Notes: a model not told the origin generated them from the letters alone. DNA of 64,000 nt from a virus (IMGVR_UViG_3300033068_000911:5537-69536); one strand, 5' to 3'. Positions 14,401 through 42,557 are shown, counted from the stretch's first letter. Program-made: numbers and translations.

Positions 14401-16634
14401 TTCAGACAGCAATGTCCACAATCCAGACTGATATTACAAGCGCAATGCTTGCGATTCTGCTCGTCATGACTTTGCAGTGGCAGGCAATCCAGATCGCCGT
14501 GCAGAATGCCATGCTGGCCATTCAGACGACGATTCAAGCCGCGATGATGCAGATTCAGAATGACATCACCGCTGCGATGCTCGTCATCCAGGCTGCCATG
14601 ACCACACAGTGGCAGGCCATCCAGACCGCGATCCAGACTGCAATGCTGGCTATTCAACTCATTGTCCAGACTGGCATGACTCAGATTCAGACGGCCATCC
14701 AGAATGGCATGACACTGATTCAGGCAGTCATGCTCACGTCATGGGCATTAATTCAAGTCACCGTGCAGACAGCATTGATCGCCATCCAGACTGCCGTAAT
14801 CGTAGGAATGGCGGCAATCGTAGCGGCAGTTACGGCGGGAATGACTGCAATGAGTCTTGCTGTAACTTTGGGCATGACTGCAATGACGCTGGCAGTTACC
14901 ACAGGCATGACTGCGATGACACTGGCCGTCACCGTGGGCATGACTGCGATGGCCGCTTCAGTGACCGCTGGCATTGCTCTCATCGTTGCCAGCATGGCAG
15001 CGGGCTGGGCGCAAGTTCAGGCCACCGTTCAAGCAGTTCTTACAGTCATTGAGACAATCATCAATGTCTCGTGGAGTATGACCATTCCTGGCTCCATTAT
15101 GGCGGCGCTGGCAACGCTCGCCGGGATCGTCACAGCCGGATGGGCTCCGGTACAGGCTGCTGTTCAGGCGGTCTTGACGGTAATCGAGACAATCATTAGC
15201 GTTTCGTGGAGTATGACCATTCCCGGCTTTATTATGGCGGCGCTGGCAACGCTCGCCGGGATCGTCACAGCCGGATGGGCTCCGGTACAAGCCGCCGTTC
15301 AGGCAGCTCTTACGGCTATCGAAACGATCATTAGCGTTTCGTGGAGTGCGACCATTCCTGGCTTTATTCAGCAGGCACTTGCAGTCATCGTCGCCAATGT
15401 AGCGGCAGGCTGGGCTCAGGTTCAGGCTGCCGTACAGACAGCGATGACTGCAATCCAGACTGCTGTTCAGACAGCATGGACAGCTATCCAGACTGCCATT
15501 CAAACAGCAATGACAACGATTCAAAGTATTGTCACGGCTGGCTGGACTGCAATTCAGAGTGCTGTCACCACGGCCATGACTGCAATCCAGACTGCCGTGC
15601 AGACGGCATGGACGGCCATCCAGACTGCCGTTCAGACGGCAATGACGCAGATTCAGAATATCATCACCACCGCATGGACGGCTATCCAGAACGCTGTACA
15701 AACTGCACTTACGGCGATTCAAAATGCCGTGCAGACCGCTTGGCAGGCAATCCAGAACGCTATTCAGACTGCAATGACGCAGATTCAGAATATCATCACT
15801 ACCGCATGGACGGCTATCCAGAACGCTGTACAAACTGCACTTACGGCGATTCAAAATGCCGTGCAGACCGCTTGGCAGGCAATCCAGAACGCTATCCAAA
15901 CTGCCATGACCGCGATCCAAAACCTCATCACCTCGGCTTGGCAGGCAATTCTTACGGCAATTCAGAGCGCATTGAACACAATTCTCAGCGCCGTGACAAG
16001 TACATGGAATCAGATCGTCAGTGCCGTTCAAAGCGCAATGACCAGCCTAGTTAACGCGATTACTCAAGGAATGTCTCAGGCAGTCTCTGCTATCCAGAAT
16101 GGCCTAAGTCAGATGCTCAGTGCCATTACAAGTGCCGCTGGGCAATTCGCGAGCGCAGGCCTAGCGCTCATGCAGAACTTTGCTTCGGGTATCGCCTCGG
16201 GTGTTAGTGCCGCCGTCTCGGCTGTCAGTAGCGCAGTTTCCGCAGTCACCGCACTTCTACCTGGCTCTCCGGCGAAAATCGGACCCCTCTCCGGTCAAGG
16301 CTGGACGCAGGTCCGTGGCCGCCACTTGGTGGAAGACCTCGCCGCAGGCCTGGAATTCACGCGCCCGCTGGACCGGGCAGCCTCCGCCCTGGCCAACTCG
16401 ATGGCCTGGCCCCTTGACGGCATGGCACGATTCGATGCGCTCGCCGGGGGCCAGGGCTGGGGGGTCGGTGGCTTGGGTCGAGAGGGTTCCGCGCCGATCA
16501 CCATCACGGTCGAGGCCGGTGCCATAGTCTTGACTCTCGGAGAAGGCGTTGATCCCGAAGCGGCGCGAAGCGCATTCGACAGCGCGGGTGATGAGATTGC
16601 CAGCGCACTCCTGACCGCCCTGCAACGCCGATGA
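11475..16634 (+). CDS. Tape measure protein (1719 aa)
   Basis: Longest ORF; DVDADT-type N-terminal repeats, Ala/Gly/Ile-rich helices, long run of about 11-aa repeats (IQTAIQTAMTA) with periodic Trp. Confidence 0.95.
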   Translation: MPTVAELDVLIDANDKATATLAKIDALIKSMEGDDVAFDITANADDATADLTRVEAAIRDLDGEIVNISVDLDSAAASAEIASLTASIERLGDMVADPEVDIDTAATLAQIEALRAQLEALDSQNVDIDVEADTAAAMAQLAALERMVSDLDSSNVDIEVDADTAQATSELLRIEALLDRIGSIVAGPKVDIDTAAALADLAALRSMLQSLDNDDIDIDVDVDVASALAKIASLEGALAAIDNRETITVDVDTKNAAANLRKLSNEWQTMSENIDGTVAAVLTLYPALAPLGGVAAAGVGALATAFTTAGIGAGLFGAVAVSAFDGIGAALKGTKGAYAKLDAEQRKMFASIQEFQGVWKNFVDQFKPQVFEIATVGLKGIASILPSLAPIVENTGKAFLNLEKSAIAALQGPFWQSFISTVGSSVQPILEGLGRSIGNIITAFAGMVKAFTPLTLEFVAGLEEMTAGWAAWGQSLSSNHQFQAFIDYAKENLPRVKQFLIDLGKAFVDLMQAAAPVGAAMLDIASKALSAFSRFQDAHPMLTSVAVALGSLALAAMKVGGPLLNMASGGSAVLGLMRILPAPVLIAGAAIAAIAAAFVVAYSESETFRTQVQQAVSAVTTFVQAEVKKWEDFFTEFGDVFDKVGQTWGPALRKAWDGVVAAVQAGWERLKGILEAAMDGFRGSILAWAGGLSGDFGTMFKGLGDAVVGFGKAIGLAIKAILDGLSGIGGIIADAIAEVTLSALKAIADFAGQLFKSGVAFFADFAKGLAQGGSVIAGIIQGIIAGGAAFLPGSPAEKGPLSGSGWTHTRGVNMMTDFADGITSASGLVTSAVQSIMDAIAAILSQAGASFNVAFTAAWTGILESVTAEWLAIQAAIDSAMSAIRSAIDAGMLAIQASVTAAMTAVQAAMTSGWTEIQAAIAAAMAGIQTAITAAMTAIQTAIESAMTAIQAAMTSQWQSIQNAVTAAMTAIQTSIQTAMSTIQTDITSAMLAILLVMTLQWQAIQIAVQNAMLAIQTTIQAAMMQIQNDITAAMLVIQAAMTTQWQAIQTAIQTAMLAIQLIVQTGMTQIQTAIQNGMTLIQAVMLTSWALIQVTVQTALIAIQTAVIVGMAAIVAAVTAGMTAMSLAVTLGMTAMTLAVTTGMTAMTLAVTVGMTAMAASVTAGIALIVASMAAGWAQVQATVQAVLTVIETIINVSWSMTIPGSIMAALATLAGIVTAGWAPVQAAVQAVLTVIETIISVSWSMTIPGFIMAALATLAGIVTAGWAPVQAAVQAALTAIETIISVSWSATIPGFIQQALAVIVANVAAGWAQVQAAVQTAMTAIQTAVQTAWTAIQTAIQTAMTTIQSIVTAGWTAIQSAVTTAMTAIQTAVQTAWTAIQTAVQTAMTQIQNIITTAWTAIQNAVQTALTAIQNAVQTAWQAIQNAIQTAMTQIQNIITTAWTAIQNAVQTALTAIQNAVQTAWQAIQNAIQTAMTAIQNLITSAWQAILTAIQSALNTILSAVTSTWNQIVSAVQSAMTSLVNAITQGMSQAVSAIQNGLSQMLSAITSAAGQFASAGLALMQNFASGIASGVSAAVSAVSSAVSAVTALLPGSPAKIGPLSGQGWTQVRGRHLVEDLAAGLEFTRPLDRAASALANSMAWPLDGMARFDALAGGQGWGVGGLGREGSAPITITVEAGAIVLTLGEGVDPEAARSAFDSAGDEIASALLTALQRR

Positions 16635-16647
16635 AGAGGTAGGCAGC

Positions 16648-19600
16648 ATGCCAACGAGGATCACCTACGGGAATCATGGAGATTCGCTTCAGGGTTCACC
16701 AGAGAAGCGCTTGGATGTCGCACCGGATGGAACGCTCTACGCGGCCATTGTTGACACCGATGACTGTAGGGACGGATATCTCAAGTTCTTCCAGTCGGTC
16801 AATGGTGGCTCAACGTGGTCTTACGTTTCGCGGTCTGACCTTGATCTTGAGCAGACGACGGCTGTTCCTTCGTTCTTTGTCGACTCTGACGGATACGCGC
16901 ACGTCTCATGGGTGACATGGGGTTGCGACCCGCAATATGTCATCTACGCACGCGGCACCCCTCGCTCCGGTGGCGGATGGTCATGGAAAACGAAGTGGAT
17001 CAAGCCTGCGCTCGGGCGAATGGGCGTCGATAGCGATATCGTTGCATTCCGGCAGGGCTCGGGCTGGGTTGCATGGATTTCGTGGAATACGCATTCAGGT
17101 GGCCACACGTCGCGCGTTCGCATCTCGGCGTCAGGAACACTGACCGTCGAGGCCACAACCTCCGGACCTGCGTCCGGTTCGTCGGGGTATCAGCCGGGTG
17201 CGATGGAGTTCGTGCACACTGGCGATGGCCGAACCCCTGCGACCGCACCGTCGATTCTCTACACGAACTTTATGCAGGGCTCGTCGGGTCCGATTCGCTT
17301 GAATCGAGCGCTGTACTCAGGTGGATCATGGACATGGGAATCCCCGGTGCAAGCCGTTGCTTCCGTGAACATCAGCAAAACAACGCTCGTTCAGGCGTTC
17401 GACGGTACGCGGCTCATCGTCGCCTATTCCGGTAGCGGATCGTCTACGGTCAGTTGCCTCCAGTGGGTCCCTGGTGCTGGCTCAGTGACGAGCATCAATC
17501 CTCCGGGCGCGCCTGGTGGCACTGGTGAAGTGCTCGGTATCAGCATGTCGATTGATCCATTGACAAACGACATCTATCTTGCGTATTACGACATCACCAA
17601 TGGCAATATCCGGTGGTCTCGCTACAATCGTACGGCGGGCACGTGGAGCGCATGGGCCGTTGCGATCACGCGTAGTCCGAGCAGCGCGGACGGCAAGGTC
17701 CAGTTAGTTCGGCATCCCCCACGTGATTCCGTCGATATGATCTACGCGACGGGCTCCGGTTCGTCGTGGCAGATTTACAGCCATCAGTTGACCGCGCTTG
17801 TGCGCGCGCCGACCGCTCCGACACTTCTCGACCCTCCATCGGGCGCTCTGCGCAACTTGGCGGCAGGCTACACGTTCACATGGAAGTACAACCCTGTAAG
17901 CCCTGGCGACACTCAGCAGGGCTGGTTTTTCCGTCGCAAGGCGGGGGCTGGCAGCGCTGAGTACTGGAATGCCGCATCCGGCACCTGGGGCGCAAGCGAA
18001 ATCCTGAATACCGGATCAGGCGCGTCTGCCTCATTCCCTCCCGGCACTTGGGCTAGCGGAACGTCATTCACATGGAGCGTCAAGACGCGCTCCGCAACGG
18101 GCCTCGATTCCCCCTGGGCCGCAGATCGCACGGTTGTCGCAACGTCAGCGCCCGTCGTCACCGTAACCGGCCCGGTCGGCATTGTCTACGGTGAATCAAC
18201 TCCGCTTATCACCTGGGACTACTCGGGCATCGATGCGCAGCTTTCTTACCAGGCTGCCGTTTTCACAGAACTTCAGGCGTCGATCCCTGGATTTAATCCG
18301 GCGTCCAGTCCCGCAGCATGGCGAGGCGATGTCACATCCAGTGCCATTGCCCGCAGTGCGCGCGTCGATACACCGCTCGATGATCGAGTTGGCTTCCGTG
18401 CTTACGTGCGATGCACATCGGCCATCGGTGTCGCGAGCGAATGGGGCTACGAGTCTTTCGTCATTTCGATCAATCCGCCCGCAGGGCCGATCGTAGAGCT
18501 CCGGGAAGAGATTAAGTATGAGACGGAAGTTCCGCGTGTTCGGCTTGATGTGACTGGCCAAAGCAACTTTATGGACCAGATGCAAGCCATCGGTACTGAG
18601 GGCTGGGACGCCGAGACGAACGTGACAGTTGCCGCAGAGGTTGATGATCCGCAGAACCAGCTTTCCCGGTCCCTCAAGATGACATCAAATGCGGCAGGTC
18701 TCATCAGCGCACAGTCCGCTGTGGGATCACCTCCGCTTGCGCCAATAGGTGAAGAACAGCCCCTTGGGCCACTGTCGTGGCCAGTCGTTGGCGGGTCGCC
18801 GTACACCGCTCTCGCATCGTTCAAGGCGGCGGCGACGGCCAGGGCGGCGCGTGTGGCTATCCGGTGGTACGACGCGGACGACGGGACCGGAAATCTCATC
18901 GAAGAGACGACGGGGGATCAGGTTGTCACAGGCTCCACGATGTTCGAGGCCGCGTACGCCACCGCCCTGGCCCCACCTGGCGCGAAGCTTGCGCGGGTTG
19001 CCGTGCAGGTACTCGGCACGACGGCGGCAGGTGAGGCGTTCTGGGCGACTGGCCTGTCGTTCGCCCCTGGTCGTTCGCTGACGTGGAGCGCGGGCGGGTA
19101 TGCGACGACGCAGACGGTGCGCGTGGAGCGCTCACTGGATGGCGGATCGACGTGGAAGCTTGCGGCTGATCGAGTGAAGACGAGCCTTTATCAGCGAGCG
19201 ATCGCTTACGACCGAGAGATGCCTTATCGTGTTGATGCGAAGTATCGTGCGGCAACTGTAGTTGATCTGGGGTTTTCGTCAATCGTCAGTGGGTGGTCGC
19301 TAATTTCCACGATCAAGATCGTTCATGACCTGTGGTCAATTCGCGATCCCGACGATGATGTAGGTGAACTCAACGCCATCGTGACTGAATTTACGGAACA
19401 TGATGATGAATCGTCATCAGTGCATCGGCCCGCTGGCCGCGAGTACCCCGTGATCGACACTGAGGGTTACCGGGCAAGCGAAGGAACGATGACTGTATTC
19501 GTCGGATCAGGGAAGTTGGATAAGGCGAAGGGTGTTCTCACGCGCACCGTTCCGATGATTGTCCAGTCTCCGGCTGGCCGCGTCATGTGGGTGCGATTCC

Positions 19601-22395: not shown

Positions 22396-22905
22396 ATGAC
22401 CATCATGCAGTATGCCCGCAAGGCGATCCTCTATGTCCTGACGACCGTCCTCGGAACGAATCTCGCCGCGTTCGCCCTGCGTGGCGAGTGGACGAGCGAT
22501 AACTCGTGGACCCTGGGCATCACGGTCCTTGGCGCGGTCCTCGTGTACTTCAAGGCCAACACGCCCGACGACCCGCACGCCAAGTACTGGCTGGCGCTGA
22601 TCGTCCCCGGCCTCCTCGCGATCCAGGCGGCGATCAGCGACTCCACCTTCACTGCCGACGAGGTGGCACCCATCCTCCTGGCCTTCCTGGGGGCCTTGCA
22701 GGTCCGGGATGCAGCCAACGTTGGGGATGCCCTCGATCGGGCCGCAGCGGGCCAGGGCGCGGGTCTCGCCTCCACGACTGGCGACGCAGCCGCAGGCGGG
22801 GGCCAGGGCGCGGGTCTCGCCGCCTCTCCTGGCGACGCAGCCGCAGGCGGGGGCCAGGGCGCGGGGGTCGCCTCCACGACTGGCGAAATTGCCGATGTGA
22901 CCTAG
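22396..22905 (+). CDS. Holin-like protein with repetitive C-terminal tail
   Basis: Four short TM segments in a duplicated two-TM pattern; tail of 17-aa repeats. Confidence 0.6.
   Translation: MTIMQYARKAILYVLTTVLGTNLAAFALRGEWTSDNSWTLGITVLGAVLVYFKANTPDDPHAKYWLALIVPGLLAIQAAISDSTFTADEVAPILLAFLGALQVRDAANVGDALDRAAAGQGAGLASTTGDAAAGGGQGAGLAASPGDAAAGGGQGAGVASTTGEIADVT
22741..22880 (+). repeat. About 2.7 tandem 51-bp units, each with GGCCAGGGCG
   Basis: The motif starts at 22750, 22801 and 22852, exactly 51 bp apart. Confidence 0.85.
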
Positions 22906-22921
22906 GTCACGAAAATCACCC

Positions 22922-22960
22922 AAGGGGGGGCACGAGAGCGGAAAATCTCGTGCCCCCCTT
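22922..22960 (+). terminator. Strong hairpin ending the structural/lysis operon
   Basis: aagggggggcacgaga / tctcgtgcccccctt stem; no U-tract. Confidence 0.5.
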
Positions 22961-23143
22961 CGCATGCCCCCTGACCTGCGAAAACGCGAAGAGGGGGCAG
23001 GGGGGGGCAGCTTTTTGCCCCACCCTATCCATCGTGTAGGCGCGGGGGGAAGGATAGGGAAACTGCCCCCCCTGCCCCCAAGGCTTACCTAATTTTGGCT
23101 CTGACCAGCAGTTTGTACATATGTGCGGGGGCACGGGGGGCAT
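22931..23143. repeat. G/C-tract locus A (inverted copy of 55797..56008)
   Basis: The reverse complement shares an about 60-bp block (ttaggtaagccttgggggcagggggggcagtttc.ctatccttccccccgcgcc) and a 31-bp block (ccctgccccctcttcgcgttttcgcaggtca) with locus B. Confidence 0.85.
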
Positions 23144-23378
23144 GGCGTCAGTAAACGCTGACGAAGACCCCTGAGGTGACTAGGAGAAATGCCACCTGCT
23201 ACTATGCGCCGCCCCCGGAAGGACCCTGCCGCAGCCGCCGCCGCCCGCCCTGGCCCCCGGAGCGAGTTCGACTGCGAGACAAGCGTTTTGGACGATCGCC
23301 CAATTCAGAGTCCACTACTGCTTGTGGTACGCTTAACCACGCAACCGACACCCAAACGACGAGGGGATTCGCACAGAA

Positions 23379-23663
23379 ATGCACATCGTTACGGAAATGA
23401 CCCTTGCGGCACCCGCCGCGTTCGACATTGACAGGGGCCTAGGCAACCTGGAAAAGCTTGCTGTTGGCATCGCCACGGCTTTCTTCATTCTCCTGGGCGC
23501 GGCGATTCTCCTGCGAGGATTGAGGTCTCAACAGGTTTCCAAGGCAGCGGATGGGGCCATAATCGGCATCTTCGCGGCTATTCCGATTGCGCTTGGCCTC
23601 GGTGGAATTGTTTACTTCACCGGGATCGGTACGGGAGTGCTGAAGTTCTTCGGCGCGATCTAA
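23379..23663 (+). CDS. Pilin/TcpD-like small membrane protein
   Basis: 94 aa, two TM segments, first gene before the VirB4-type cluster. Confidence 0.5.
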   Translation: MHIVTEMTLAAPAAFDIDRGLGNLEKLAVGIATAFFILLGAAILLRGLRSQQVSKAADGAIIGIFAAIPIALGLGGIVYFTGIGTGVLKFFGAI

Positions 23664-24178
23664 TGCCGCAGTACAGCGACGACGATGCACGGAACCTCCG
23701 CGCTGTTTACCTTGGCCCGGAGGGCTTTCGCGCCCTTCAAGATTTCACCTACATGCAGTATGGGGTGAGCATCGCTCTCGGATTCATCCTTGGCATCCCG
23801 ATTGCTTACCTCATCCCGGCGATCATCACTATCGGGGTAGTTGGATGGATCATCGCATCGTTCGCTTCTCGGTTTTTCGAGAGGCGAACGCTTATTCATT
23901 GGACGACGTTCTCAATGTTCGTCTCGCTCTACCTCCTGCTCGACCCTAGCCCCGCTCACTGGATTCTGCCGCTGAACATCTTTGCCACTCTGGCACTGGT
24001 GCTTGTCGCGGCGAATGTCATTACGGCGAAGGTCGGCAAGCACATCACCGGGGAGCGTCCGATCGGCCACTGGCTATCACTCCCCATGAAGGTCGCGGAT
24101 GCTCCGCGACGAAACAGCGGAAGCCGCACGGGGGTGGCTTACGCGCTAACGACGAAGCGTAAGAGGTTCAGGAAGTGA
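23663..24178 (+). CDS. TcpE/VirB3-like membrane protein
   Basis: Multi-TM protein with basic tail, translationally coupled to the VirB4-like ATPase. Confidence 0.55.
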   Translation: MPQYSDDDARNLRAVYLGPEGFRALQDFTYMQYGVSIALGFILGIPIAYLIPAIITIGVVGWIIASFASRFFERRTLIHWTTFSMFVSLYLLLDPSPAHWILPLNIFATLALVLVAANVITAKVGKHITGERPIGHWLSLPMKVADAPRRNSGSRTGVAYALTTKRKRFRK

Positions 24179-26751
24179 ACGATTCACAAGTCTCGAAGAA
24201 TGTGCGGCAGATGGTCGGGAATCTGCTTCTCACGAAGTCTGGCAAGGTTCTTGCTGGATACCGGATTCCCGATGTTCGCTGGGCATTTACGACGCAATCT
24301 GCAAAACAGCACCTCATCCACATCTCATCGGAATGTTGGGCTAATCTGGCATTGCCGAAGGGGCGTGCGTTCCACGAGTACGTGACGACTCAGCCGTTCC
24401 CCGTGACGGCGTGGGCACGGCAGTTGGACTTGCGCCACCCGAATCCACTGCCGGATATCCATACATGCGAAGGATTCACTGAACATGACATGAACCTTGG
24501 TCTCTGTGGATGCGAGACCTGGAATGGCCACCTGGCGCGCACTCAGCAGCGAGCGGCCCGATGCGGCCAGGGGATCAAGCGAACCTATCGTTACGTCGAG
24601 ATTGGGAAGATTGGTCCACTTGAACGCCTCTCGGGTCGAAAGCTCGAAGAGCTCCGCAGGGAGGAGGCCGTGATCCGTGCGCTCATCGGTGGGTGGAATC
24701 CGGTTCCGCTGACCGAGCGCCAGCAGGCCTGGCTGCGACTACGCGCCCTGGCCCCCGGTGTCATTCCGTCAGAACTTCCCACATCCGATGAAGGATATGA
24801 CGAGGCCGATCTTGACGCGATGGCTTCACCTATCCGCTGGGATGAAGACGAGTTCGCACGGCATATCGTTACGACGACATTCCGTGAGGGTAAGCCGATA
24901 GAGCGGGCGGTTCAGCCCGTTTCGGTGACCCGCTTCCGGAAGATGACTTATCCGGAGAATCAGATCGAACCGTGGCAAGCGTTCGCAGAGCGGGCGATGG
25001 ACCCGCGAAAGATGCCTTTCCCGGTTTCATGGTCCATCTCTGGTGAGGTTCACCCTGGCGAGGATTTTGCCGGTAAGGCGGATCGTCGCTTTCGCCTCGC
25101 AGTCAATCTTGGACGTGACTACCGCAAGCACGGCGAGGTTCCGCCCGATCATATCGAACGTGGGATCAAGGCGGCATTCCGCGCACGCGAAGAGGTGTCC
25201 GGCAACGACGCGGCGAAGGCCGTGCGGATTCCCTGCACAATTGATGCCATCGTTTATGGTGAGGCGCATGGTGACTTGACAGCCTCGCAGGTTGTGGAGG
25301 AGCGCTCCGCTGCACTCATGCGACTCTACGGGGCACCGCCACTGAAAATCGGCATGGCAATTGATTACGTGCCGTGGAGTCGGATGCTTGCGACGATCCC
25401 CGGCGAAGAGCGCGAGCGCACTCGATTTCAGCGGGAGATGCGCGCCGATCAACTCGCAGTAGGCATGCCCAACGTTTCCTCATCAGTTGGCGATGGTGTT
25501 GGGCCATACATCGGATACACGCGGGATGCTGCACAGTCTTCCGTGCATATCGACTCGCACTATGCCACAGCAGGCCAGGGCGCGCTTGGGCGCGGCCAGA
25601 ACTTCTGGCTCGTTGTCGCGACCCTTGGCGGCGGAAAGTCGATGTTCGCTGGGAAGCGCGCCTACGAGGATGTACGGCTCGGGAAGCGTGTCATTATTGT
25701 TGATCCGTCCGGACCTCTCCGAAAGCTGTGCTATTTGCCGGAATTCGCTGGTTCACAGGATGTCAACCTTCTCGAAGGTCATCCGGGCATGATGAATCCG
25801 TGTGCGCTGATTCGTGAACCGAAGCGTCGCGAATTCGACAGTGAGGAAGATTGGAAGGCGGCGGTAGCTCGGGCGTCACGCGAGCGCCGCGCATTGCTCA
25901 TCGACTCGGCGCGGCGCATGCTTCCGCCCGACCTGTACGAGGATGCACGGACTCCTGGACTTCTCATCAGTACGTGTCGTGGAAAGATGTTCACTCAACA
26001 GGATTCGATTTGGTGGCTTATCAATCGGCTCAATGAGCGTCGCGATCCGCTCGCGAATTCTATTGCTTCCGCACTGATCGACGCAGCCGAGATTCCCGGA
26101 TTTGAACTCCTGTTCCCTGACCATTCATCGACTGAACACATGGCCGTGAGGTCCGATGCGCCACTGACGGTCATCTCGATGCCAGGACTTCAGCGGGCCG
26201 ACGACACGATCGCGCGCGCCTCGTGGTCCGAGTCGGAGCAGGCGGCAGACCTTCTCTGGCGTCTTGCGTCGTTCTACGTGGATCGCCTGGCTTATGACAA
26301 GCCGATGGGTGAGCCGATCACGCTCATTTTCGATGAAGCGGAATCCATGATGGATACAGGTATCGGGCGCTCGCGCATGAATCGCTTGGGCCGGGATCAC
26401 TCGAAGTGGAATATGCATATTCTGTTCCTTCTGAAGTCCCTGACTGAGCAAATGCTCTCTGGTGAACTGCGCAACTTCATTGGCGGCGTGCTTCTCGGCA
26501 AGCAGGTGGATCTAGATACGGCGAGGAACCTTCTACGCTTGGTCAACATTGCCGATGAATCCTATGCTCAGATGATGCTCAAGTTGAGCACGACCTATCC
26601 AGGCGAGTTCATCGTCAGCGACTACGACCGGAATGCCGGAACAATGCGAGTCGATCTGGAATATCAGCCGAGGCTGAAATCTGTGCTTCTCACCGATCCA
26701 GCGAAGGAAGGTAGCGACCACTGGTCATCTCTGATCGAGGAAGAGGTCTGA
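24175..26751 (+). CDS. virB4: VirB4/TcpF/ConE-like conjugation ATPase
   Basis: 858 aa; Walker A TLGGGKS, RVIIVDPSG, Walker B LIFDEAE, RLGRDHSKWN, C-terminal GEFIVSDYDRNAGTMRVD. Confidence 0.85.
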   Translation: MNDSQVSKNVRQMVGNLLLTKSGKVLAGYRIPDVRWAFTTQSAKQHLIHISSECWANLALPKGRAFHEYVTTQPFPVTAWARQLDLRHPNPLPDIHTCEGFTEHDMNLGLCGCETWNGHLARTQQRAARCGQGIKRTYRYVEIGKIGPLERLSGRKLEELRREEAVIRALIGGWNPVPLTERQQAWLRLRALAPGVIPSELPTSDEGYDEADLDAMASPIRWDEDEFARHIVTTTFREGKPIERAVQPVSVTRFRKMTYPENQIEPWQAFAERAMDPRKMPFPVSWSISGEVHPGEDFAGKADRRFRLAVNLGRDYRKHGEVPPDHIERGIKAAFRAREEVSGNDAAKAVRIPCTIDAIVYGEAHGDLTASQVVEERSAALMRLYGAPPLKIGMAIDYVPWSRMLATIPGEERERTRFQREMRADQLAVGMPNVSSSVGDGVGPYIGYTRDAAQSSVHIDSHYATAGQGALGRGQNFWLVVATLGGGKSMFAGKRAYEDVRLGKRVIIVDPSGPLRKLCYLPEFAGSQDVNLLEGHPGMMNPCALIREPKRREFDSEEDWKAAVARASRERRALLIDSARRMLPPDLYEDARTPGLLISTCRGKMFTQQDSIWWLINRLNERRDPLANSIASALIDAAEIPGFELLFPDHSSTEHMAVRSDAPLTVISMPGLQRADDTIARASWSESEQAADLLWRLASFYVDRLAYDKPMGEPITLIFDEAESMMDTGIGRSRMNRLGRDHSKWNMHILFLLKSLTEQMLSGELRNFIGGVLLGKQVDLDTARNLLRLVNIADESYAQMMLKLSTTYPGEFIVSDYDRNAGTMRVDLEYQPRLKSVLLTDPAKEGSDHWSSLIEEEV

Positions 26752-28601
26752 TGCGCCGCGCCCTCGCCGCAGTTGCCCTCGCCCTGGCCTGCCTGACGTT
26801 CGCCGGTGGCTCCGCGTCTGCCGCACCCTCGCACCCGTCGATTGACATTCTCTGCAAGACACCCGCACCACCTGCGCAGGTACCGGGCAGTGGGCTTCGT
26901 GGCACGATGGGTGAAACGCGGCCTGATGATGCGGTCATTGATGCAAACAAGACGCTTCGCACTGACAACATCCTCGCAAACGGAGGATACGCCGGTCTTG
27001 AATCCACGGCGTATGACAACGGATGCGATGTTGATCCGACGAAACTCTATGATCGTATGGAAACGTCGATGCGCCTGAGTAAGGTCAATGCGATCGTGGC
27101 TTTCGGTCAGGGAATCTCGACACTCACGACAGCCATCGAGGCAAAGGTGTGGAGTCCCGACTGGATCGCTGGTCTTCTCGGACGTCTGGCAAAAGATGCG
27201 ATCACCCTGGTTTGGGATCGGTTCTGGGTTGCCGGGATGGTTTCGATTGGCCTCATCGCAACGACGGCAGCCTTGCTCTATCGAGCGATTCGCAACGATC
27301 CTTCCGGTGTCATCGGTGGCCTTGCTTGGATGGGGATCGTTCTCATCGGTTCGTCGTTCATCCTAGTGAATCCTATCGCCATCCCATCGGCTACCGTCGC
27401 AGCGGGGCAGTCGTTCGTCAATTCGATCAACTCTGGCTCTCAGGCCGAAACGGCGGCGACGGCGGTGCAGTATTCCGGATACTTGCGCCGAACGTTCGGA
27501 AGCGAAGATTCTGCGCTTGCGAAGGAATACGGGATTCCACTTCTCGCCGCTTCGCGTCTCTCGTGGGCCGAAGAGCGTGACACGGCCAACGATCCAAAGG
27601 CACGCGATGCGCTCATGGCGAAAGATGCAGCGGCATTCAAGAAGATTGCCGACGACATCAAGGAGCGCAGCCCGAATGACGTCTATCCGCGAATCCAGGG
27701 CCAGAAGCAAAGTTCAGGTGAAGCGCTATTCGAGGCGGTGGCGGCATTGTTTGTCAACCTGTTCCGGCTCATGACAGCATCGGTTGTTTTCATCGGTGCG
27801 ATCTTCATGGTAATTCTCGGAATCACGTGGCTCACAGCAGCGGCATACACAGTGACACCAGCGGGGCAAGCATTCGGTCGGTCACTATTCGACAAGATGA
27901 TGCTTTGCATTGCTAACATCGTCGTCTGTGCGATCGGAGCATGGCTTTACATCCTATGGACGCAATATGCCCTAGCGCCAGGAAACCCCGACTGGCTCGC
28001 AGTGTTCCTCATGGTTGTGGGAACCGTCGTTTTCTGGACTGCCGTGCGCCCAGATCGCAAGATGCTCTCGCTCATGTCGCTTGGACATATTTCGCCCACA
28101 AGTCAGCGAGGCTTGGGCCGACTCCTGAAGGGGCTCGCCTTCTCCTGGCTCGCCGGACGCGTCGCTGGTGAAACACTCAGGGAAGACAGGGAGTCGGAGG
28201 CCAGGCCAGACCCGACGCCCACTGAGCCGCCCGTCGTTGCGCCACCACCGCTCGCCATCGAGGCCGGACCGTCGCTCGCTCCGCAGGCCATCGAGGCGGC
28301 ACCCACGGAGCGTATCGTCCACGAAGGCGAAGTCATCCACCACGGAGAGCCGGGAGAAGGCGGCTTGCCGCAGAGTGCCGAACCGACGCCGGATGTCGTG
28401 GAGGGCGAGGTCATTTATCGCGAGCCGGAGCAACTGCCGGACGGGACGACGCCGTACCAGCGTCCGCTCGACGATGAGGATTCCGCCTCATCGCCACCGT
28501 CCGGAGCAGTCGGAGAGGTGGAACTCTACAATCGACCCGAAGGCTTTGCAGATTCCGACGAATCTGATACTGTCGCAACAGGATCAAGCGAAGGGAAGTG
28601 A
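26751..28601 (+). CDS. VirB6/TcpH/ConG-like channel protein
   Basis: Signal peptide, extracellular domain, several TM helices, long Pro/Glu-rich tail; follows VirB4. Confidence 0.7.
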   Translation: MRRALAAVALALACLTFAGGSASAAPSHPSIDILCKTPAPPAQVPGSGLRGTMGETRPDDAVIDANKTLRTDNILANGGYAGLESTAYDNGCDVDPTKLYDRMETSMRLSKVNAIVAFGQGISTLTTAIEAKVWSPDWIAGLLGRLAKDAITLVWDRFWVAGMVSIGLIATTAALLYRAIRNDPSGVIGGLAWMGIVLIGSSFILVNPIAIPSATVAAGQSFVNSINSGSQAETAATAVQYSGYLRRTFGSEDSALAKEYGIPLLAASRLSWAEERDTANDPKARDALMAKDAAAFKKIADDIKERSPNDVYPRIQGQKQSSGEALFEAVAALFVNLFRLMTASVVFIGAIFMVILGITWLTAAAYTVTPAGQAFGRSLFDKMMLCIANIVVCAIGAWLYILWTQYALAPGNPDWLAVFLMVVGTVVFWTAVRPDRKMLSLMSLGHISPTSQRGLGRLLKGLAFSWLAGRVAGETLREDRESEARPDPTPTEPPVVAPPPLAIEAGPSLAPQAIEAAPTERIVHEGEVIHHGEPGEGGLPQSAEPTPDVVEGEVIYREPEQLPDGTTPYQRPLDDEDSASSPPSGAVGEVELYNRPEGFADSDESDTVATGSSEGK

Positions 28602-28602
28602 A

Positions 28603-29157
28603 ATGCCGAAGACAAGCGAACTGCTCAAGAAGGCTCTCAGCAACGGGCGAACCGCACGAAAAGTGCGGCTTGCCGTCATAGCGACTCTCGTTCTGCTCGT
28701 CTTCGTCATGTGGGGCATCAAGTCAGGGTTGAGTGCCAGGGAGGGCCAGGGCGCGGGTGAGGTGGCGTCGCCCACCCCGACGCGCACCTATGATGCCGAC
28801 CTCCTGCCGCCGACGACGGGAGCAACGTCAGTGCCGGACGCATCGACGCCGCGCCCTCCCGGCACTCTCATGGCTGCATATATGACCGTGCGTGAGGCGG
28901 CAGAGCTTTTCCTCAAGGGTGACGCACTGTCGTTCGCGAATCTCGCAGACGGCGAGACGGGCAAGAAGGTGGCGGCATCCGAGCCGCCCCCGCCTGGCCT
29001 CGTGATCGAGGAAATCACCGGTGTTGACGACCCGAACAGTCCGTTTATCCAGGAGGGCACTGTCAAGACATCGGGCGGGCATGCCTGGTCACTTCAGGTG
29101 ACTTGGAGCGATGAGCGCCAACGGTGGCTGGTCAGTAACGTCGAGTACCTGCCGTGA
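28603..29157 (+). CDS. Bitopic membrane protein, TcpC/VirB8-like
   Basis: Basic N-terminus, one TM, Pro/Thr linker, small NTF2-like-looking domain ending WSLQVTWSDERQRWLVSNV. Confidence 0.5.
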   Translation: MPKTSELLKKALSNGRTARKVRLAVIATLVLLVFVMWGIKSGLSAREGQGAGEVASPTPTRTYDADLLPPTTGATSVPDASTPRPPGTLMAAYMTVREAAELFLKGDALSFANLADGETGKKVAASEPPPPGLVIEEITGVDDPNSPFIQEGTVKTSGGHAWSLQVTWSDERQRWLVSNVEYLP

Positions 29158-30662
29158 TTATCGAGGCGGTCGCTGCCGAGGCGACGCGCCGGACGGCCCG
29201 CAAGGTCGTGCCGGTCGTCGTCCTCGTCGGTGTCGCAGCGATCGGCACACCCGTCGCGCTCCTCACTGCTGGGCAGGCTCAAGCCGACCTCGCGGCGAAG
29301 GCGGCAGCGGAAGCGGCGGGCACGTGCGTCCAGCAGGTGACCGAGACCCGCGCCCTGGCCCCCATCGCCAGCAAGGGGGCGCTCACACCCGCGCAAATCG
29401 CCCAGGCTGTTGTAAGCGCTGGATTCCCTGCGAACGAGGTCGAGACCGCCGTGGCGGTAGCAATGGCCGAATCCAGTGGTGTTCCGACAGCGACGAATCG
29501 CAACACGAACGGTTCCACTGATTACGGCCTGTTTCAGATCAATTCTATCCATTCTGGGATTCTCGCACGTGGCACTTGGTCATCACCGGTCGATAATGCA
29601 GTGATGGCACTCAAGGTGTGGCGAGACGCAGGCGGATCATGGTCTCCGTGGGTGACATATAAGACCGGGGCGTATCGCAAATACATGGGCACCTCTGTAC
29701 CATCTCAGAATGTCGGTTCTGTTCCGCTGCCTGTCGCCGTAAATTGCGCTGATCCGCAGATTCCGTCGATTACTCAGTGTGGTGGCAATGATTCGCCCGT
29801 ATCTCAACCATCCGTCCGGGGCAAAATTAGGACAGTGAACGAGTCGGGCATGCAGCCGAACGCGCGCGCGCTGGGGGAACTCATCAAGCGTGAATTTCCC
29901 ACGGTTCTCGAAATTGGAGGCTATCGTCCTGGTGATCCGCAAGACCACGGACAAGGGCTCGCTGTTGATGTCATGGTGTCGAGAATCGGAACATATGCCA
30001 AAGGTCAACAGAAGGTGACGGGAGATAAGGTTGCCGCGTGGGCGAAAGCTAACGCCGCGTCTCTCGGCATTACGTATGTGATCTGGGAAAATCGCATATG
30101 GAACATCAAGCGCGATGGTGAGGGTTGGCGCTCTCAGGGAAAATTGGGCGCAACGGATGGTCACTGGGATCACGTACATATCTCCGTCAAGCGAGGCGGG
30201 AGTGTCGCGAACGCACCCCAGATCGTGGCGCACGCCGATGTGACGAAGTTTGCGAATGGCCAGATACCTACGGAGTACCTATGTCCGCTTTCCGTCGATA
30301 AGACGAAGCTCTTGCGCGCGGATGCGGCAGATGCCTTTAATCGACTCTCGAAAGCTTACAAGGGTAAGTTTGGCTCAGATATCTGCGTGACCGACGCTTA
30401 TCGTTCCCTGGCTGAGCAAATCGACGTGAAGCGCCGAAAGCCGAAGTTAGCAGCCGCTCCCGGCACATCGAATCATGGGCTCGGACTCGCTGTCGATCTT
30501 GGCTGTGGCGCACGGACCTTCGGAACGCCTGTTGACCTATGGCTTCGCGCCAATGCTCCGAGCTTCGGATGGGTTCATCCGAAGTGGGCCGATCCGTCAG
30601 GATCGAAACCGGAGCCATGGCATTGGGAATACGCGAGCGGCGTTACCGCCGCTCGGCGTTGA
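29154..30662 (+). CDS. Multi-domain cell-wall hydrolase (lytic transglycosylase + M15-like + VanY-like peptidase), VirB1/CwlT analogue
   Basis: SLT motifs AESSG, DYGLFQIN, GSWSPW; middle GGYR...DHGQGLAVD...HWDHVHIS; C-terminal DAYRS...PGTSNHGLGLAVDL...EPWHWEY; N-terminal membrane anchor. Confidence 0.85.
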   Translation: MIIEAVAAEATRRTARKVVPVVVLVGVAAIGTPVALLTAGQAQADLAAKAAAEAAGTCVQQVTETRALAPIASKGALTPAQIAQAVVSAGFPANEVETAVAVAMAESSGVPTATNRNTNGSTDYGLFQINSIHSGILARGTWSSPVDNAVMALKVWRDAGGSWSPWVTYKTGAYRKYMGTSVPSQNVGSVPLPVAVNCADPQIPSITQCGGNDSPVSQPSVRGKIRTVNESGMQPNARALGELIKREFPTVLEIGGYRPGDPQDHGQGLAVDVMVSRIGTYAKGQQKVTGDKVAAWAKANAASLGITYVIWENRIWNIKRDGEGWRSQGKLGATDGHWDHVHISVKRGGSVANAPQIVAHADVTKFANGQIPTEYLCPLSVDKTKLLRADAADAFNRLSKAYKGKFGSDICVTDAYRSLAEQIDVKRRKPKLAAAPGTSNHGLGLAVDLGCGARTFGTPVDLWLRANAPSFGWVHPKWADPSGSKPEPWHWEYASGVTAARR

Positions 30663-39310: not shown

Positions 39311-39771
39311 AGAAGGAATCCAAGTCATTTCATTGGCTCGTAGAAAACATGTACGAATGCGAGATTACGATGATCGCCGCGCATTGGCATGTTATGCACG
39401 CCGCTGCAACTATGAATGAGCAAATCTGCCCTGCGCAGGACAAGATGGCACTTGCGATCACGCATAGCATCCATGAGCAACTTGACGATGCGCTAGCAAG
39501 CGCGCTGCCCAATAATGCATTCGAGTCTCCCGATCCGAATCAGCTTCTCACGACAACGATCACCGTACCTGTCCTCATCGCGGGAATCGCACAGGTGCAA
39601 GACATCGTAACAATGATGGGTGACATCGAGGCTGATGTCCTTCTCCTCTCGCACAATGCTCCACATCTCGACTTGAAGCGCTATGGAAGTGCGACCCTTA
39701 CGTCACTGTGGGAATATGTAAGGTTCCGCGGCTCAGAGGAACTGAAGCACATGAAGGTTATCATTCCGTGA
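39307..39771 (+). CDS. Hypothetical protein
   Basis: ATGA coupling. Confidence 0.55.
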   Translation: MKKESKSFHWLVENMYECEITMIAAHWHVMHAAATMNEQICPAQDKMALAITHSIHEQLDDALASALPNNAFESPDPNQLLTTTITVPVLIAGIAQVQDIVTMMGDIEADVLLLSHNAPHLDLKRYGSATLTSLWEYVRFRGSEELKHMKVIIP

Positions 39772-41342
39772 GTTCAACACTCCCGAAAGCTACAATTGAG
39801 GCGGTACGCGCGGCAGCGCGCATCTCGCCGGGATTTGTGCGCTGCGCAGGATGTGGCCGGGTGTACTCCGAACGGGAATGCCACATCGACCACATTGTGC
39901 CGGAAGCGGACGGCGGATCACATGATCCCGCGAATCTGCAAATTCTCTGCGCCCCTGCGAAAGGCAAGGGGTGTCATCGAGTCAAGACGAGAATCGAGGC
40001 GAAGAAGAGGGCCAGGGCGCGGGGCGGGGCGGACCCGTGGTCCATCGTGGCTGGCGCTGGCTTCGTGGGGGTTGGTGGCCTCGGGGCCTACGGGCTCGCA
40101 ACCGGCGCGCCGATCGCGGGGCTCATGCAGGATGCGGCGCTGTATGTCGGCGTGGGGGCGGCACTGGGGCTCGCGGCCACGCATCTCCTGCCCCCGCGCC
40201 AGATGGCGATCCGTGAGTCACTGAGCGAGGATACGGCAGTCTTGCCGGTAACCGGGTCCGGCGACCTGGCGGACCGCGCGCTTGCCGCCCTGGCCCCCCT
40301 GATGGGCGAAATTGACGTCAGTGCGACGACGATCGGAGATGGGCGAAAAGGTGTCGTCGTGGCGTATGGATCGGACGTTTCCGATCATTCGGAGGCAGAG
40401 AGGCTGAAGGTCCAAGAGCGCACGAACATGAAGCTCGGGGGCCGATGGGAGCTTTTGTGGAACGGCACACGGAATGAACTGACGATCGTGCCGCGTCCGA
40501 CGCTCCCCCGCATGATTCGCCATCCTGGATTGCCAGACGCACGGAAATGGTACGAAATCCCCATTGGACCGCAGGCGACCATTGACTTGTCTGTGACGGC
40601 CCACGTTCTCATCACTGGCACAACGGGCTCAGGCAAGACGTCGGTCATGCGAAGCATCGTCCTAGCGGCGACTGACTCCGCGAAGCGAGGTGAGGCTGAA
40701 GTCATCCTGGCTGATCCGAAGCGCTGTGAACTCATCGGATTCCGTGGCTGGCCAGGTGTGCGCGGCGTCATGACTGACGACGACTCGTTGTGGGATATGC
40801 CGATTCGCCTACGCAAGGAGATGGAGGAGCGTTATCGCAAGAGCGAGGAAGAAGGCGTGCAACTCGGCTCGTTCACGCCGATCATCGCCGTTATTGATGA
40901 GTATCGAGAGTTTGCCGCACGAATGCGCGGCATGTATGCGATGAACGATCCGATCACTGGGAAGCCTCGTCGCATCACCGGCCAGTCGGAGCCAACACCA
41001 TTACTTGCGGTCGGCTCACTTCTCTCGATGGCGCGCATGTGTGGAATCCACCTCATCATCGGCACTCAACGCGCCGATGCCAAGATCGTCGGTGGTGATT
41101 CGCGAGACAATATCCAAGGTCGGGTTGGCGTCGGGCCACTGAACAAGGATGCTGCATTGATGCTTTTTGACCGTTCAGATTACGGTCGCGACCTTCCCGC
41201 CGACGCGAAGGGAAGGATCACATTTCAGCAGGGCGATGGGGGCTTTATTGAGGACCAGAGTTATTGGGTTCCCGATCCGGGCGACGCCAAGGGAACGAAT
41301 GCGGAGGAGGACTGGGAGCACCTAGAGAGGCTGAAGGCATGA
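39768..41342 (+). CDS. HNH endonuclease - TM - FtsK/SpoIIIE-type ATPase fusion
   Basis: CAGC...HIDHIVPEADGGSHDPANLQILC...CHRVKT; two TM segments; GTTGSGKT, ILADPK, VIDEY, ARMCGIHLIIGTQR. Confidence 0.85.
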   Translation: MSSTLPKATIEAVRAAARISPGFVRCAGCGRVYSERECHIDHIVPEADGGSHDPANLQILCAPAKGKGCHRVKTRIEAKKRARARGGADPWSIVAGAGFVGVGGLGAYGLATGAPIAGLMQDAALYVGVGAALGLAATHLLPPRQMAIRESLSEDTAVLPVTGSGDLADRALAALAPLMGEIDVSATTIGDGRKGVVVAYGSDVSDHSEAERLKVQERTNMKLGGRWELLWNGTRNELTIVPRPTLPRMIRHPGLPDARKWYEIPIGPQATIDLSVTAHVLITGTTGSGKTSVMRSIVLAATDSAKRGEAEVILADPKRCELIGFRGWPGVRGVMTDDDSLWDMPIRLRKEMEERYRKSEEEGVQLGSFTPIIAVIDEYREFAARMRGMYAMNDPITGKPRRITGQSEPTPLLAVGSLLSMARMCGIHLIIGTQRADAKIVGGDSRDNIQGRVGVGPLNKDAALMLFDRSDYGRDLPADAKGRITFQQGDGGFIEDQSYWVPDPGDAKGTNAEEDWEHLERLKA

Positions 41343-41722: not shown

Positions 41723-41940
41723 TGGACTCAGAGCAGAGGCACCGGCACGCGCTGCGCATCGCGCGAGAAGCCATTGAGAGCATCGAGTTTTTGACCATTG
41801 CGGAAGATGATGAAATTGCAGAAGCAATGGATGGCTTCACTAGCGAAGAGGTTGAGGCAACCTGGGCTGACATTCACATGATCGCCACTCGTTACACTGA
41901 GGTGCGCATTATCCCCTCTCGCAAGATTCGCAACGACTGA
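41719..41940 (+). CDS. Hypothetical protein
   Basis: Last rightward gene; overlaps the 3' end of the sigma gene. Confidence 0.45.
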   Translation: MMDSEQRHRHALRIAREAIESIEFLTIAEDDEIAEAMDGFTSEEVEATWADIHMIATRYTEVRIIPSRKIRND

Positions 41941-42557
41941 GTATGAATCTGGCTGATTCGTGATCCGCTCACACCGAGAGCCTGTGCGATCTTGTCGCGA
42001 GTGATTCCTCGCCAGTAGATATCGTGCATGATTCTCGCTTGGCGCTCGGTGAGGCTTCCCAGGGCCTCATCGAGCGCCTTTGCATGTCTCTCATGAAATG
42101 AATATCGCGTTTGGCTTGGCGCTACCGGATCGTGGATTTCAACGTCGATAGACAGCGGCGCGCCAGCCGCCCTGGCCAGCAGGGTCGCTTCCACGTGCTT
42201 CAGTGGCACTTTGAGTTCGTCGGCCAGTTCGATGTTCGTAGGTTCGCGTCCGAATTGCATCGAGAGACGATGATTCGCATCCTTCAGTTCCTTGATGCGA
42301 AGCTGCATTGTCCGCGCTACAAGGCTTTCCTTGCGTACGTCATCAATGATCTTCAGTTCGATGCGCTGCCATGCCCAACGTTTCGCAGAATATCCCTTGT
42401 TAGGATCGAATGTCTTCGCGGCGATGAAAAGGCCTTCCCACGCGGCTGGCTCCAGGTCATCGGCGTCAATCCACGCAGGAAGGCGTGCGGCGACTTGAAT
42501 GGATATGACTCTGGGAAGTTGAGCAAATTCGATACAGAACTTCTCGGTCGCATCCAT
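41892..42557 (-). CDS. Sigma-70 family factor, FliA/WhiG (group 3) type
   Basis: Region 2 DADDL...EGLFIAAKTFDPNKG...IIDDVR; region 3 REPTNIELADEL; region 4 LTERQARIM...IAQALGVSGSRISQIH. Confidence 0.88.
   Translation of the reverse strand: MDATEKFCIEFAQLPRVISIQVAARLPAWIDADDLEPAAWEGLFIAAKTFDPNKGYSAKRWAWQRIELKIIDDVRKESLVARTMQLRIKELKDANHRLSMQFGREPTNIELADELKVPLKHVEATLLARAAGAPLSIDVEIHDPVAPSQTRYSFHERHAKALDEALGSLTERQARIMHDIYWRGITRDKIAQALGVSGSRISQIHTQSLRILREGIMRTSV

Follow-up and report, generated by a model that had tools for sequence, protein, structure and literature searches.

Horizontal transfer is regarded as following two distinct routes, one by phages and the other by conjugative elements. 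In Streptomyces, the six co-transcribed SLP2.19-23 genes are needed for conjugal transfer of the linear plasmid SLP2, and the chromosomal paralog cmdABCDEF, which includes the VirB4-like CmdB, acts in sporulation and chromosome segregation, its deletion having left SLP2 transfer unaltered (PMC2782261). For SLP2 and pELF-type linear plasmids, transfer is believed to proceed end-first and in the form of double-stranded DNA (dsDNA), with an FtsK-type motor that works with a VirB4-like partner and with VirB6/VirB8-like proteins but needs no nickase (PMC13492992), and the TraB protein pumps dsDNA from cell to cell and through the mycelium (PMC4447253). Phage-plasmids carry partition (Par) and replication (Rep) functions, and no conjugative one is known (PMC12282955); in the case of Phi1207.3, 'conjugation' was operationally defined, and no type IV secretion system (T4SS), VirB4, relaxase or FtsK genes were reported (PMC4260502). 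Here we describe a six-gene cassette with a VirB4-type ATPase, together with a gene for a fusion of an HNH nuclease to an FtsK-type motor (HNH-FtsK), in a 64,000-nucleotide stretch of viral DNA (hereafter the window), which comprises bases 5537-69536 of the 69,536-bp IMG/VR virus record IMGVR_UViG_3300033068_000911. An earlier note, made from the sequence of the window, had read the locus as a Gram-positive-type conjugation operon, possibly of a phage-plasmid. The parts of this system are all of known kinds, and what is new is their combination and their residence in a tailed phage; a literature search found no description of a T4SS cassette in an actinophage.

The six-gene cassette and its plasmid and chromosomal kin

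As shown in Table 1, positions 23379-30662 hold six plus-strand genes (g1 to g6), in which each junction overlaps or abuts (TAATG, GTGA, TGATG, TGAAATG and GTGA, respectively), and which we take from this arrangement to be translationally coupled. The product of g3 scored above the cut-off for the Pfam family AAA_10 (48.8 bits vs 27.5), and its Walker A (ATLGGGKS; Gly-485, Gly-487 and Lys-488) and Walker B (LIFDE; Asp-720 and Glu-721) motifs were invariant across 15 homologs. Further, when the AlphaFold model of g3 (pLDDT 86, pTM 0.81) was compared with the Protein Data Bank (PDB) using Foldseek, the best 12 matches were all R388 TrwK/VirB4, aligned over the full length (~870 columns, TM 0.58-0.62, E 6e-21 to 2e-16), compared with E values of 5e-9 or worse and TMq values of <=0.31 for HerA, DndH and TrwB. 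In this model, g3 displays the two-domain architecture of VirB4 (an N-terminal domain and a C-terminal ATPase domain), as against that of HerA, FtsK or VirD4; the fold search superseded a profile search of the PDB, which had returned only weak matches centered on the P-loop (4AG5, E 1.5e-4). The nearest named families were TcpF and the VirB4 of mycoplasma integrative and conjugative elements (NCBIfam), and g3 fell far under the equivalog cut-offs of both (44 bits vs 1100 for TcpF), indicating that it is not an ortholog of either. We conclude, from sequence and predicted structure, that g3 encodes a genuine VirB4 that is no ortholog of the Firmicute proteins. Both the six coupled T4SS-type genes within a complete tailed-phage genome and the VirB4 ATPase with intact Walker motifs had been reported in the earlier note, and both observations hold.

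The remaining cassette genes were assigned with varying degrees of support. The g1 product, which had no family match in Pfam, PHROG or NCBIfam, resembles VirB2 in size and topology only; a small gene occupies position 1 in the plasmid and chromosomal cassettes described below too. No significant match was found in the same three databases for g2, which is a candidate VirB3/TcpE-type partner of the ATPase; its BLASTP matches were the position-2 genes of phage relatives, Streptomyces plasmids and a Dactylosporangium locus, and its plasmid homolog gave a sub-threshold TcpE match (E 0.095). The g4 product matched the position-4 genes of plasmids and chromosomes by BLASTP (E 1e-14 to 1e-22) and, in the ESM Atlas, clusters from Actinomycetota (feature score 0.96, structural TM 0.65), 15-25% of whose members carry the TrbL family PF04610, and is thus apparently VirB6/TrbL-like. 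The start of g5 is most likely the ATG at 28603 instead of the GTG at 28168 that opens the longest open reading frame (ORF). Residues 94-184 of its product matched NTF2/cystatin-like folds with middling Z scores of 5-6.5 (TcpC 3UB1, 6.3; OrfG 6ZGN, 5.9; VirB8 2CC3, 5.2), which, because the model is of low confidence (pLDDT 58; the Atlas model was also used), speak to fold class only; the predicted architecture is compatible with a VirB8/TcpC-like protein, and the plasmid counterpart of g5 gave a sub-threshold match to DUF3828. Overall, the phage proteins proposed as VirB6-like, VirB8/TcpC-like and TcpE/VirB3-like components had no Pfam, PHROG or NCBIfam match. The last gene, g6, encodes a wall hydrolase with SLT_3 and VanY/M15 domains, whereas the position-6 hydrolase is of the NlpC/P60 or M23 type in plasmids and chromosomes. 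Because the phage has a separate endolysin gene, g6 is not the lysis enzyme and is therefore, as judged from gene content, an extra hydrolase dedicated to the cassette. The labels given earlier thus fared unevenly: 'pilin-like' for g1 and 'TcpE-like' for g2 agree with size and topology but lack significant sequence support, hydrolase is borne out by the domains of g6, and VirB6-like and VirB8/TcpC-like are compatible with the TrbL lead for g4 and the NTF2-like domain of g5, no family-model match having been found for either gene.

Table 1. Coordinates of features in the window (nucleotide positions counted from its first base; aa, amino acids; nt, nucleotides; TM, transmembrane)
Feature	Position	Strand	Remarks
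HK97-type major capsid protein	866-1894		
Tape measure protein, 1719 aa	11475-16634		
Holin-like small membrane genes	21.5-22.9 kb		just upstream of cassette
G/C-tract non-coding region upstream of g1	22906-23378		hairpin after holin-like genes; holds left repeat arm
176-nt inverted repeat	22921-23096 and 55859-56034		arms 32.8 kb apart, 78% complementary; near-identical G/C-tract core of ~100 nt
g1, small membrane protein, 94 aa, cassette position 1	23379-23663	+	2-3 predicted hydrophobic segments (~21-49, 60-78)
g2, membrane protein, 171 aa, position 2	23663-24178	+	conserved N-terminal motif, hydrophobic hairpins
g3, VirB4-type ATPase, 858 aa	24175-26751	+	AAA_10, Walker motifs, fold match
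g4, polytopic membrane protein, 616 aa	26751-28601	+	signal peptide, extracytoplasmic domain, ~6 TM helices, acidic/Pro-rich tail
g5, bitopic protein, 184 aa	28603-29157	+	N-terminal TM helix, Pro/Thr linker, C-terminal NTF2-like domain
g6, cell-wall hydrolase, secreted or anchored, 502 aa	29154-30662	+	signal anchor; SLT_3 84-168, middle domain ~230-360, VanY/M15 386-494
gp037, 151 aa	30643-31098	-	32-37% identity, next to cassette in every relative; dN/dS 0.33
HNH-FtsK fusion	39708-41342	+	HNH nuclease aa 46-83, hydrophobic segments 113-161, FtsK/SpoIIIE motor
Endolysin, Amidase_2 + PG_binding_1	42573-43391	-	~20 kb from holin-like genes, 12 kb past cassette end
ArdC-N-like protein	59872-60765	-	Pfam E 1e-6, N-terminal domain only

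Full-length homologs of g3 (26-28% identity over 97-98% of its length) were found on small Streptomyces linear plasmids and on plasmids of Rhodococcus, Nonomuraea and Pseudonocardia. We compared four plasmid contexts, three from Streptomyces (pSM17C NZ_CP029341, NZ_CP050694 and NZ_CP029542) and one from Rhodococcus (NC_023144), and in all four the same six-gene order was seen, with an NlpC/P60 or M23 hydrolase last; ParA is annotated on three of them. BLASTP tied g2, g3 and g4 to the genes at the matching plasmid positions, and the products at positions 1 and 5, which displayed no BLAST similarity to their plasmid counterparts, are alike in size, topology and fold class only. The phage locus is thus a collinear six-gene operon with the ATPase at position 3 and the wall hydrolase at position 6. 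The SLP2.19-23 and SCO4126-4131 proteins were represented in these comparisons by those of other Streptomyces linear plasmids and of 80 chromosomal loci, the surveyed chromosomal loci being equated to SCO4126-4131 by literature description. Chromosomal homologs matched in at least 595 species genomes, all at 27-32% identity and with no prophage relative among them, and occurred in 13 of 201 sampled Actinomycetes genomes; in a tree, the chromosomal ATPase clades follow host taxonomy. We also noted that 34 of the 80 chromosomal loci lie beside folP-folB-folK, in Micromonosporaceae (Actinoplanes, Dactylosporangium, Virgisporangium and others) and a few related unclassified metagenome-assembled genomes, a subset of them, including the Dactylosporangium locus L005, having folE and ftsH on the other side of the cassette. 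This synteny points to vertical inheritance of the chromosomal cassette. We conclude from these comparisons that the closest kin of the phage cassette are the Streptomyces linear-plasmid cassette of the SLP2.19-23 type and the chromosomal cmdABCDEF-type paralogs, not the pCW3, ICEBs1 or Tn916 systems. The match in gene order to the latter three that had been claimed before stands at the level of superfamilies but goes no further, given the TcpF score above and given that the collinear homologs are actinobacterial plasmid and chromosomal cassettes.

Residency of the cassette in a tailed actinophage lineage

The record, which is of metagenomic origin, of linear class and ~96% complete (CheckV), is a complete tailed actinophage of ~69.5 kb from an uncultured lineage. 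A tailed-phage gene set occupies the 5.5 kb upstream of the window (TerL, PHROG E 5e-137; an SPP1-type portal; a head protease; and a scaffold), and the window adds, besides the capsid and tape measure genes in Table 1, further tail genes encoding a 1009-aa tail protein, a DUF5047 protein and a Collar-domain fibre. Against the terminases of Arthrobacter, Gordonia and Streptomyces phages, TerL reached 50% identity at best, which indicates a new lineage of tailed actinophage. The GC content of ~58% is even along the record, in which neither tRNAs nor terminal repeats were found. A large ORF at 3442-5238, which is without a match among sequenced phages, was first taken as a possible terminase; the true TerL gene lies upstream, in L002.

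A chimera near 23 kb or 31 kb, which the earlier note had raised as a concern, was looked for and not found: both junctions are spanned in three independent assemblies, each from a different sample and each of almost the same phage, and additional assemblies span the right-hand junction. Samples that contain the phage are ENA ERZ28614566, ERZ28614773 and ERZ28668903, and 167 blocks of the collection index a protein identical to g1. In one assembly of nearly the same phage (L107, ENA ERZ28614773 scaffold_117), the hydrolase gene, at 15716-17439, is called as only 270 amino acids, with an antisense ORF in front, which reflects a frameshift variant or else an error of assembly. A search of 5.8 billion protein clusters gave only ~14 close homologs of the VirB4, all metagenomic except one distant Dactylosporangium protein, and their contexts hold the same phage tail genes, Prim-Pol genes and cassette. 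A profile scan of IMG/VR for the VirB4 recovered 12 records, where a single-sequence scan gave no match; among sequenced phages there were three weak matches only, in Streptococcus and Enterococcus phage records. Seven IMG/VR records belong to the lineage, with VirB4 38-42% and TerL 63-71% identical to those of the present phage. Three of the seven are 98-100% complete, one of these being closed by direct terminal repeats, and five follow the order of the window (tail, holin-like genes, cassette, gp037, replication genes), the other two having an inverted cassette.

The ratio of nonsynonymous to synonymous substitution rates (dN/dS) in the pair L093/L094 (dS ~0.6-0.7) was 0.51 for g2, 0.26 for the VirB4 gene, 0.36 for g4, 0.19 for the hydrolase gene and 0.33 for gp037, compared with 0.04-0.16 for tail genes and values above 1 for many spurious overlapping frames in the same pair; the pair L004/L095 was too diverged to be informative. 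These ratios indicate that the cassette is under purifying selection. The neighboring gene gp037, which has no Pfam family, could encode a regulator, an exclusion factor or a substrate of the system. In a FastTree phylogeny of the ATPases (midpoint-rooted, and with long branches that call for caution), 20 phage ATPases formed one strongly supported, deeply branched clade. We further note a temperate relative (L009, a 51.5-kb contig of Logan SRR29836489) with a tyrosine integrase and a helix-turn-helix (HTH) repressor, whose HNH-FtsK is 44% identical to that of the window and whose VirB4 lies outside the phage clade, near the plasmids; the latter position hints at cassette replacement within the lineage. 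In four further IMG/VR records of 70-163 kb (L096-L099, from G007-G010), the VirB4 groups with chromosomal clades, a gene for an FtsK-like protein of 700-785 amino acids lies nearby in each, and two have TerL-like genes; they could represent additional cassette-bearing phage lineages, or else proviruses whose called boundaries take in host DNA.

We are nearly certain of the identity of the system and of its residency in the phage. Were the locus an artefact instead, either a chimeric assembly or a prophage adjoining an integrative and conjugative element in a chromosome, one would have to set the features that allow it (a linear metagenomic record without terminal repeats) against the independent assemblies across the junctions, the synteny kept by relatives whose VirB4 is so diverged, one of them a closed genome, the phage genes on both flanks of the cassette and the even GC content. 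Together, the independent assemblies and the conserved synteny indicate that the cassette is no assembly artefact, an explanation to which we attach next to no credence; nor is its residency recent.

The HNH-FtsK pump and the proposed function of the system

The second part of the system, the HNH-FtsK gene, encodes an intact HNH motif, two weak hydrophobic segments and a motor with Walker A (GTTGSGKT, at 304) and Walker B (at 393) motifs, and its product scores with the families FtsK_SpoIIIE (E 1.5e-13) and TrwB_AAD_bind (E 5e-4). Its start codon is uncertain (39708, 39768 or 39837), and a start at 39861 would truncate the HNH domain. The motor shares 28% identity (E 4e-30) with the FtsK/SpoIIIE Tra protein that adjoins the cassette on a Streptomyces plasmid. 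The fusion family comprises ~16 full-length members, all metagenomic, and no full-length counterpart was found among sequenced phages. All lineage records that are at least 90% complete carry the gene, and L009, the temperate relative, has it 1.4 kb downstream of its cassette. Likewise, an FtsK/SpoIIIE or type IV coupling protein gene lies a few kb from the cassette in all four plasmid contexts. In contrast, no FtsK-like gene occurs within 10 kb of any of the 80 chromosomal cassette loci, among which a g4-type gene was found in 77 and the hydrolase in ~69. The pump, standing beside the plasmid cassettes and kept across the phage lineage, thus separates plasmid and phage cassettes from chromosomal ones, and this contrast is our main argument that the phage system may handle DNA. 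We regard HNH-FtsK as a candidate coupling protein or pump, atypical by its HNH fusion.

As the earlier note had it, the window contains an FtsK-type ATPase and an ArdC gene but no integrase or canonical relaxase, and our searches agree. No relaxase family was detected in Pfam scans of all called ORFs, and six-frame searches with the relaxase families PF03432 and PF08751 were negative in five lineage records, with working positive controls; the other MOB families were covered by the ORF scans only. Classical relaxase-dependent conjugation is, on sequence grounds, excluded as far as known families go. A six-frame search with the integrase family PF00589, for which the control also worked, was negative in G000, G001, G002, G003 and G011, and no recombinase, ParA/ParB or Rep family was found in any called ORF of this genome. 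That no relaxase was found fits the dsDNA transfer mode of actinomycetes and linear plasmids, and the HNH fusion suggests a route to a DNA end without a relaxase.

We therefore tentatively favor, by analogy with those plasmids and while holding it somewhat short of probable, the reading that the cassette and HNH-FtsK constitute a relaxase-free dsDNA transfer apparatus, and our leading hypothesis is that the phage spreads both by virions and from cell to cell. The fuller form of this proposal, in which the phage lineage is also conjugative in the actinomycete sense, with a VirB4-type channel through which HNH-FtsK cuts and pumps the phage's own dsDNA genome without a relaxase, either during infection or from a carrier state, is possible but doubtful. 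Under such a scheme, the apparatus would be assembled in the infected cell, where the g6 hydrolase would open the wall locally and the VirB4, with the products of g1, g2, g4 and g5, would form a membrane channel. HNH-FtsK would cut or engage the replicated DNA of the phage, its HNH domain introducing a nick or creating an end, and its FtsK motor would pump dsDNA into an adjacent cell or hyphal compartment. The outcome would be virion-independent spread, as proposed for linear plasmids in the 'first-end' dsDNA model.

Several observations weigh against this proposal. No origin of transfer (oriT), FtsK gamma/winged helix-turn-helix (wHTH) recognition or clt-like element was identified, and a gamma/wHTH domain was not detected in HNH-FtsK itself. 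Pump and cassette are 9 kb apart in this genome. The phage and plasmid ATPases fall into separate clades, and the cellular sequence nearest to the phage clade, L040, is chromosomal and belongs to a plain chromosomal cassette. Further, the support for g1, g2 and g5 is weak or architectural only. Because chromosomal cassettes of the same type serve sporulation and segregation (PMC2782261), the cassette alone does not imply conjugation, and a lytic phage would seem to gain little by exporting DNA from a cell close to being lysed, unless transfer precedes lysis or reaches cells that are inaccessible to virions.

One alternative is that the system has a Cmd-like role, remodeling the envelope, septa or DNA partitioning inside an infected multicellular host with no separate recipient cell; it might, for example, maintain connections between compartments, or carry replicating DNA from one compartment or pre-spore to another within a single organism. 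The commonness of the chromosomal homologs, their taxonomic distribution and folP-folB-folK synteny, the sporulation and segregation defects of cmd mutants in which SLP2 transfer is unaffected (PMC2782261) and the chromosomal origin of L040 all agree with such a role, but we consider it unlikely given that chromosomal cassettes stand without an adjacent FtsK-like pump, while every lineage phage of the stated completeness carries one whose motor is homologous to a plasmid Tra protein. The same strict co-occurrence with a nuclease-fused DNA translocase points to a DNA substrate and speaks against a T4SS repurposed for protein secretion, interbacterial antagonism, or superinfection or entry exclusion. 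T4SSs have repeatedly been exapted for protein delivery (PMC3548315, PMC12857230), no relaxase was found and the conserved neighbor gp037 could be an effector or regulator; however, no candidate effector or toxin-immunity pair was recognised, and the closest experimentally studied cassette, that of SLP2, serves DNA transfer, so that we hold repurposing of this kind to be quite improbable.

An element that persists as a plasmid prophage and also mates in the manner of conjugative plasmids, which was the 'phage-plasmid' of the earlier note, would also account for plasmid-type channel and pump genes, and would agree both with the temperate nature of L009 and with the Prim-Pol/D5 gene that lies near the cassette in most relatives, a primase/polymerase being present on a cassette-bearing Streptomyces plasmid as well. 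Prim-Pol/D5 genes are, however, ordinary phage replication genes, and this genome has no ParA, ParB, Rep or integrase family in any ORF, whereas three of the four cassette plasmids have ParA. The phage-plasmid claim is thus not sustained, and we regard a conjugative phage-plasmid as very improbable.

Returning to relaxase-free dsDNA transfer, the point of interest is that a whole tailed-phage lineage appears to keep both halves of the actinomycete dsDNA-transfer machinery, channel cassette and pump, under purifying selection. If the proposal is true, it would provide a second, receptor- and virion-independent route of virus spread, and would change how host range, resistance to phages and the flow of genes within soil and wastewater communities are viewed. 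Even without DNA transfer, the system offers a natural three-way comparison, in which plasmids and phages have the cassette together with a pump whereas chromosomes have it alone, and which could help explain the role of the poorly understood Cmd/SLP2-type systems.

Genome surroundings and comparison with known systems

The non-coding region between the holin-like genes and g1 is probably the regulatory region of the cassette operon. It holds the left arm of an inverted repeat (Table 1), each arm of which lies upstream of an inward-pointing gene block, the right arm preceding a leftward block. The repeat probably serves for the joint regulation of two transcription units that converge, and its placement suggests that one of these co-regulated units begins with the cassette and that the units also hold replication genes and the pump. 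If so, the cassette would be expressed with DNA replication and not with the late genes. A scan for promoter and terminator consensus sequences performed no better than on shuffled sequence. We also noted a 10-mer, GGCCAGGGCG, with 37 copies on both strands between 2976 and 61484, compared with 0.29 expected; three of these (at 22750, 22801 and 22852) lie within a 51-nt tandem repeat inside a small membrane gene at 22405-22905. The 10-mer was considered as a lineage-wide pump recognition site and ruled out, as it is specific to this genome, with 0-3 copies in related phage, plasmid and chromosomal loci.

The cassette had been placed directly after the lysis genes; small holin-like genes do precede it, but the endolysin gene lies beyond the far end of the cassette and on the other strand. 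A gene for a sigma-70-type factor at 41892-42557 (minus strand) adjoins the endolysin gene, and L009 has a sigma factor gene directly upstream of the cassette. Genes for JAB, YdjM and a 2H-phosphoesterase (2'-5' RNA ligase superfamily) are clustered at 43429-45585 (minus strand); in the flanks fetched from relatives, both JAB and YdjM were seen in L008, Prok-JAB only in L004 and YdjM only in L009. The ArdC-N-like gene, which the earlier note listed along with the cassette, was found in just one of the four complete or near-complete genomes of relatives, from which we judge it to be accessory and not part of the cassette system.

Compared with known systems, phage-plasmids (P1, N15 and SSU5) and the 'conjugative prophage' Phi1207.3 resemble the present phage in that they blur the boundary between phage and plasmid or conjugative element. 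The monoderm conjugative MPF_FA/FATA systems (pCW3 Tcp, ICEBs1 Con/CwlT, Tn916 and pIP501) correspond to it in their list of functional parts, which comprises a VirB4 (TcpF/ConE), VirB6-like and VirB8/TcpC-like NTF2 proteins, a secreted wall hydrolase with two activities (CwlT/TcpG-like) and, as coupling protein, the FtsK-like TcpA. This similarity is at the superfamily level only, the TcpE, TcpC and TrbL models not being significant on the phage proteins; further, the phage system differs in that no relaxase was found and in that its coupling protein would be an HNH fusion. Streptomyces TraB/Spd and pELF (TraD-D4, TraC-B4 and TraG-B6) resemble the proposed phage apparatus in relaxase-free dsDNA transfer, in the pairing of an FtsK-type hexameric motor with membrane proteins and in coupled operons. 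However, TraB reads clt through a C-terminal wHTH domain of the kind not detected in the phage pump, and the relation of pELF TraC and TraG to VirB4 and VirB6 is one of analogy only, whereas g3 has a true VirB4 fold. The chromosomal cmdABCDEF (SCO4126-4131) is of the same cassette type, with the VirB4-like CmdB, and is widespread and vertically inherited; it is set apart by the absence of a nearby pump at all surveyed loci and by a known role in sporulation and segregation, not transfer. From the plasmid cassettes of Streptomyces and Rhodococcus, the phage cassette differs in residing in a tailed-phage genome without ParA, in its SLT+M15 hydrolase where the plasmids have NlpC/P60 or M23, in its shorter and more distant pump with an N-terminal HNH domain and in the separate deep clade formed by the phage ATPases. 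The likeness to these plasmids extends to an FtsK/SpoIIIE-type translocase alongside a cassette with no relaxase annotated and, for the SLP2.19-23 and pQC542.1c-6c type, to the order of the genes themselves, namely two small genes, a VirB4-like ATPase, a large polytopic protein, a bitopic protein of ~180 amino acids and a wall hydrolase.

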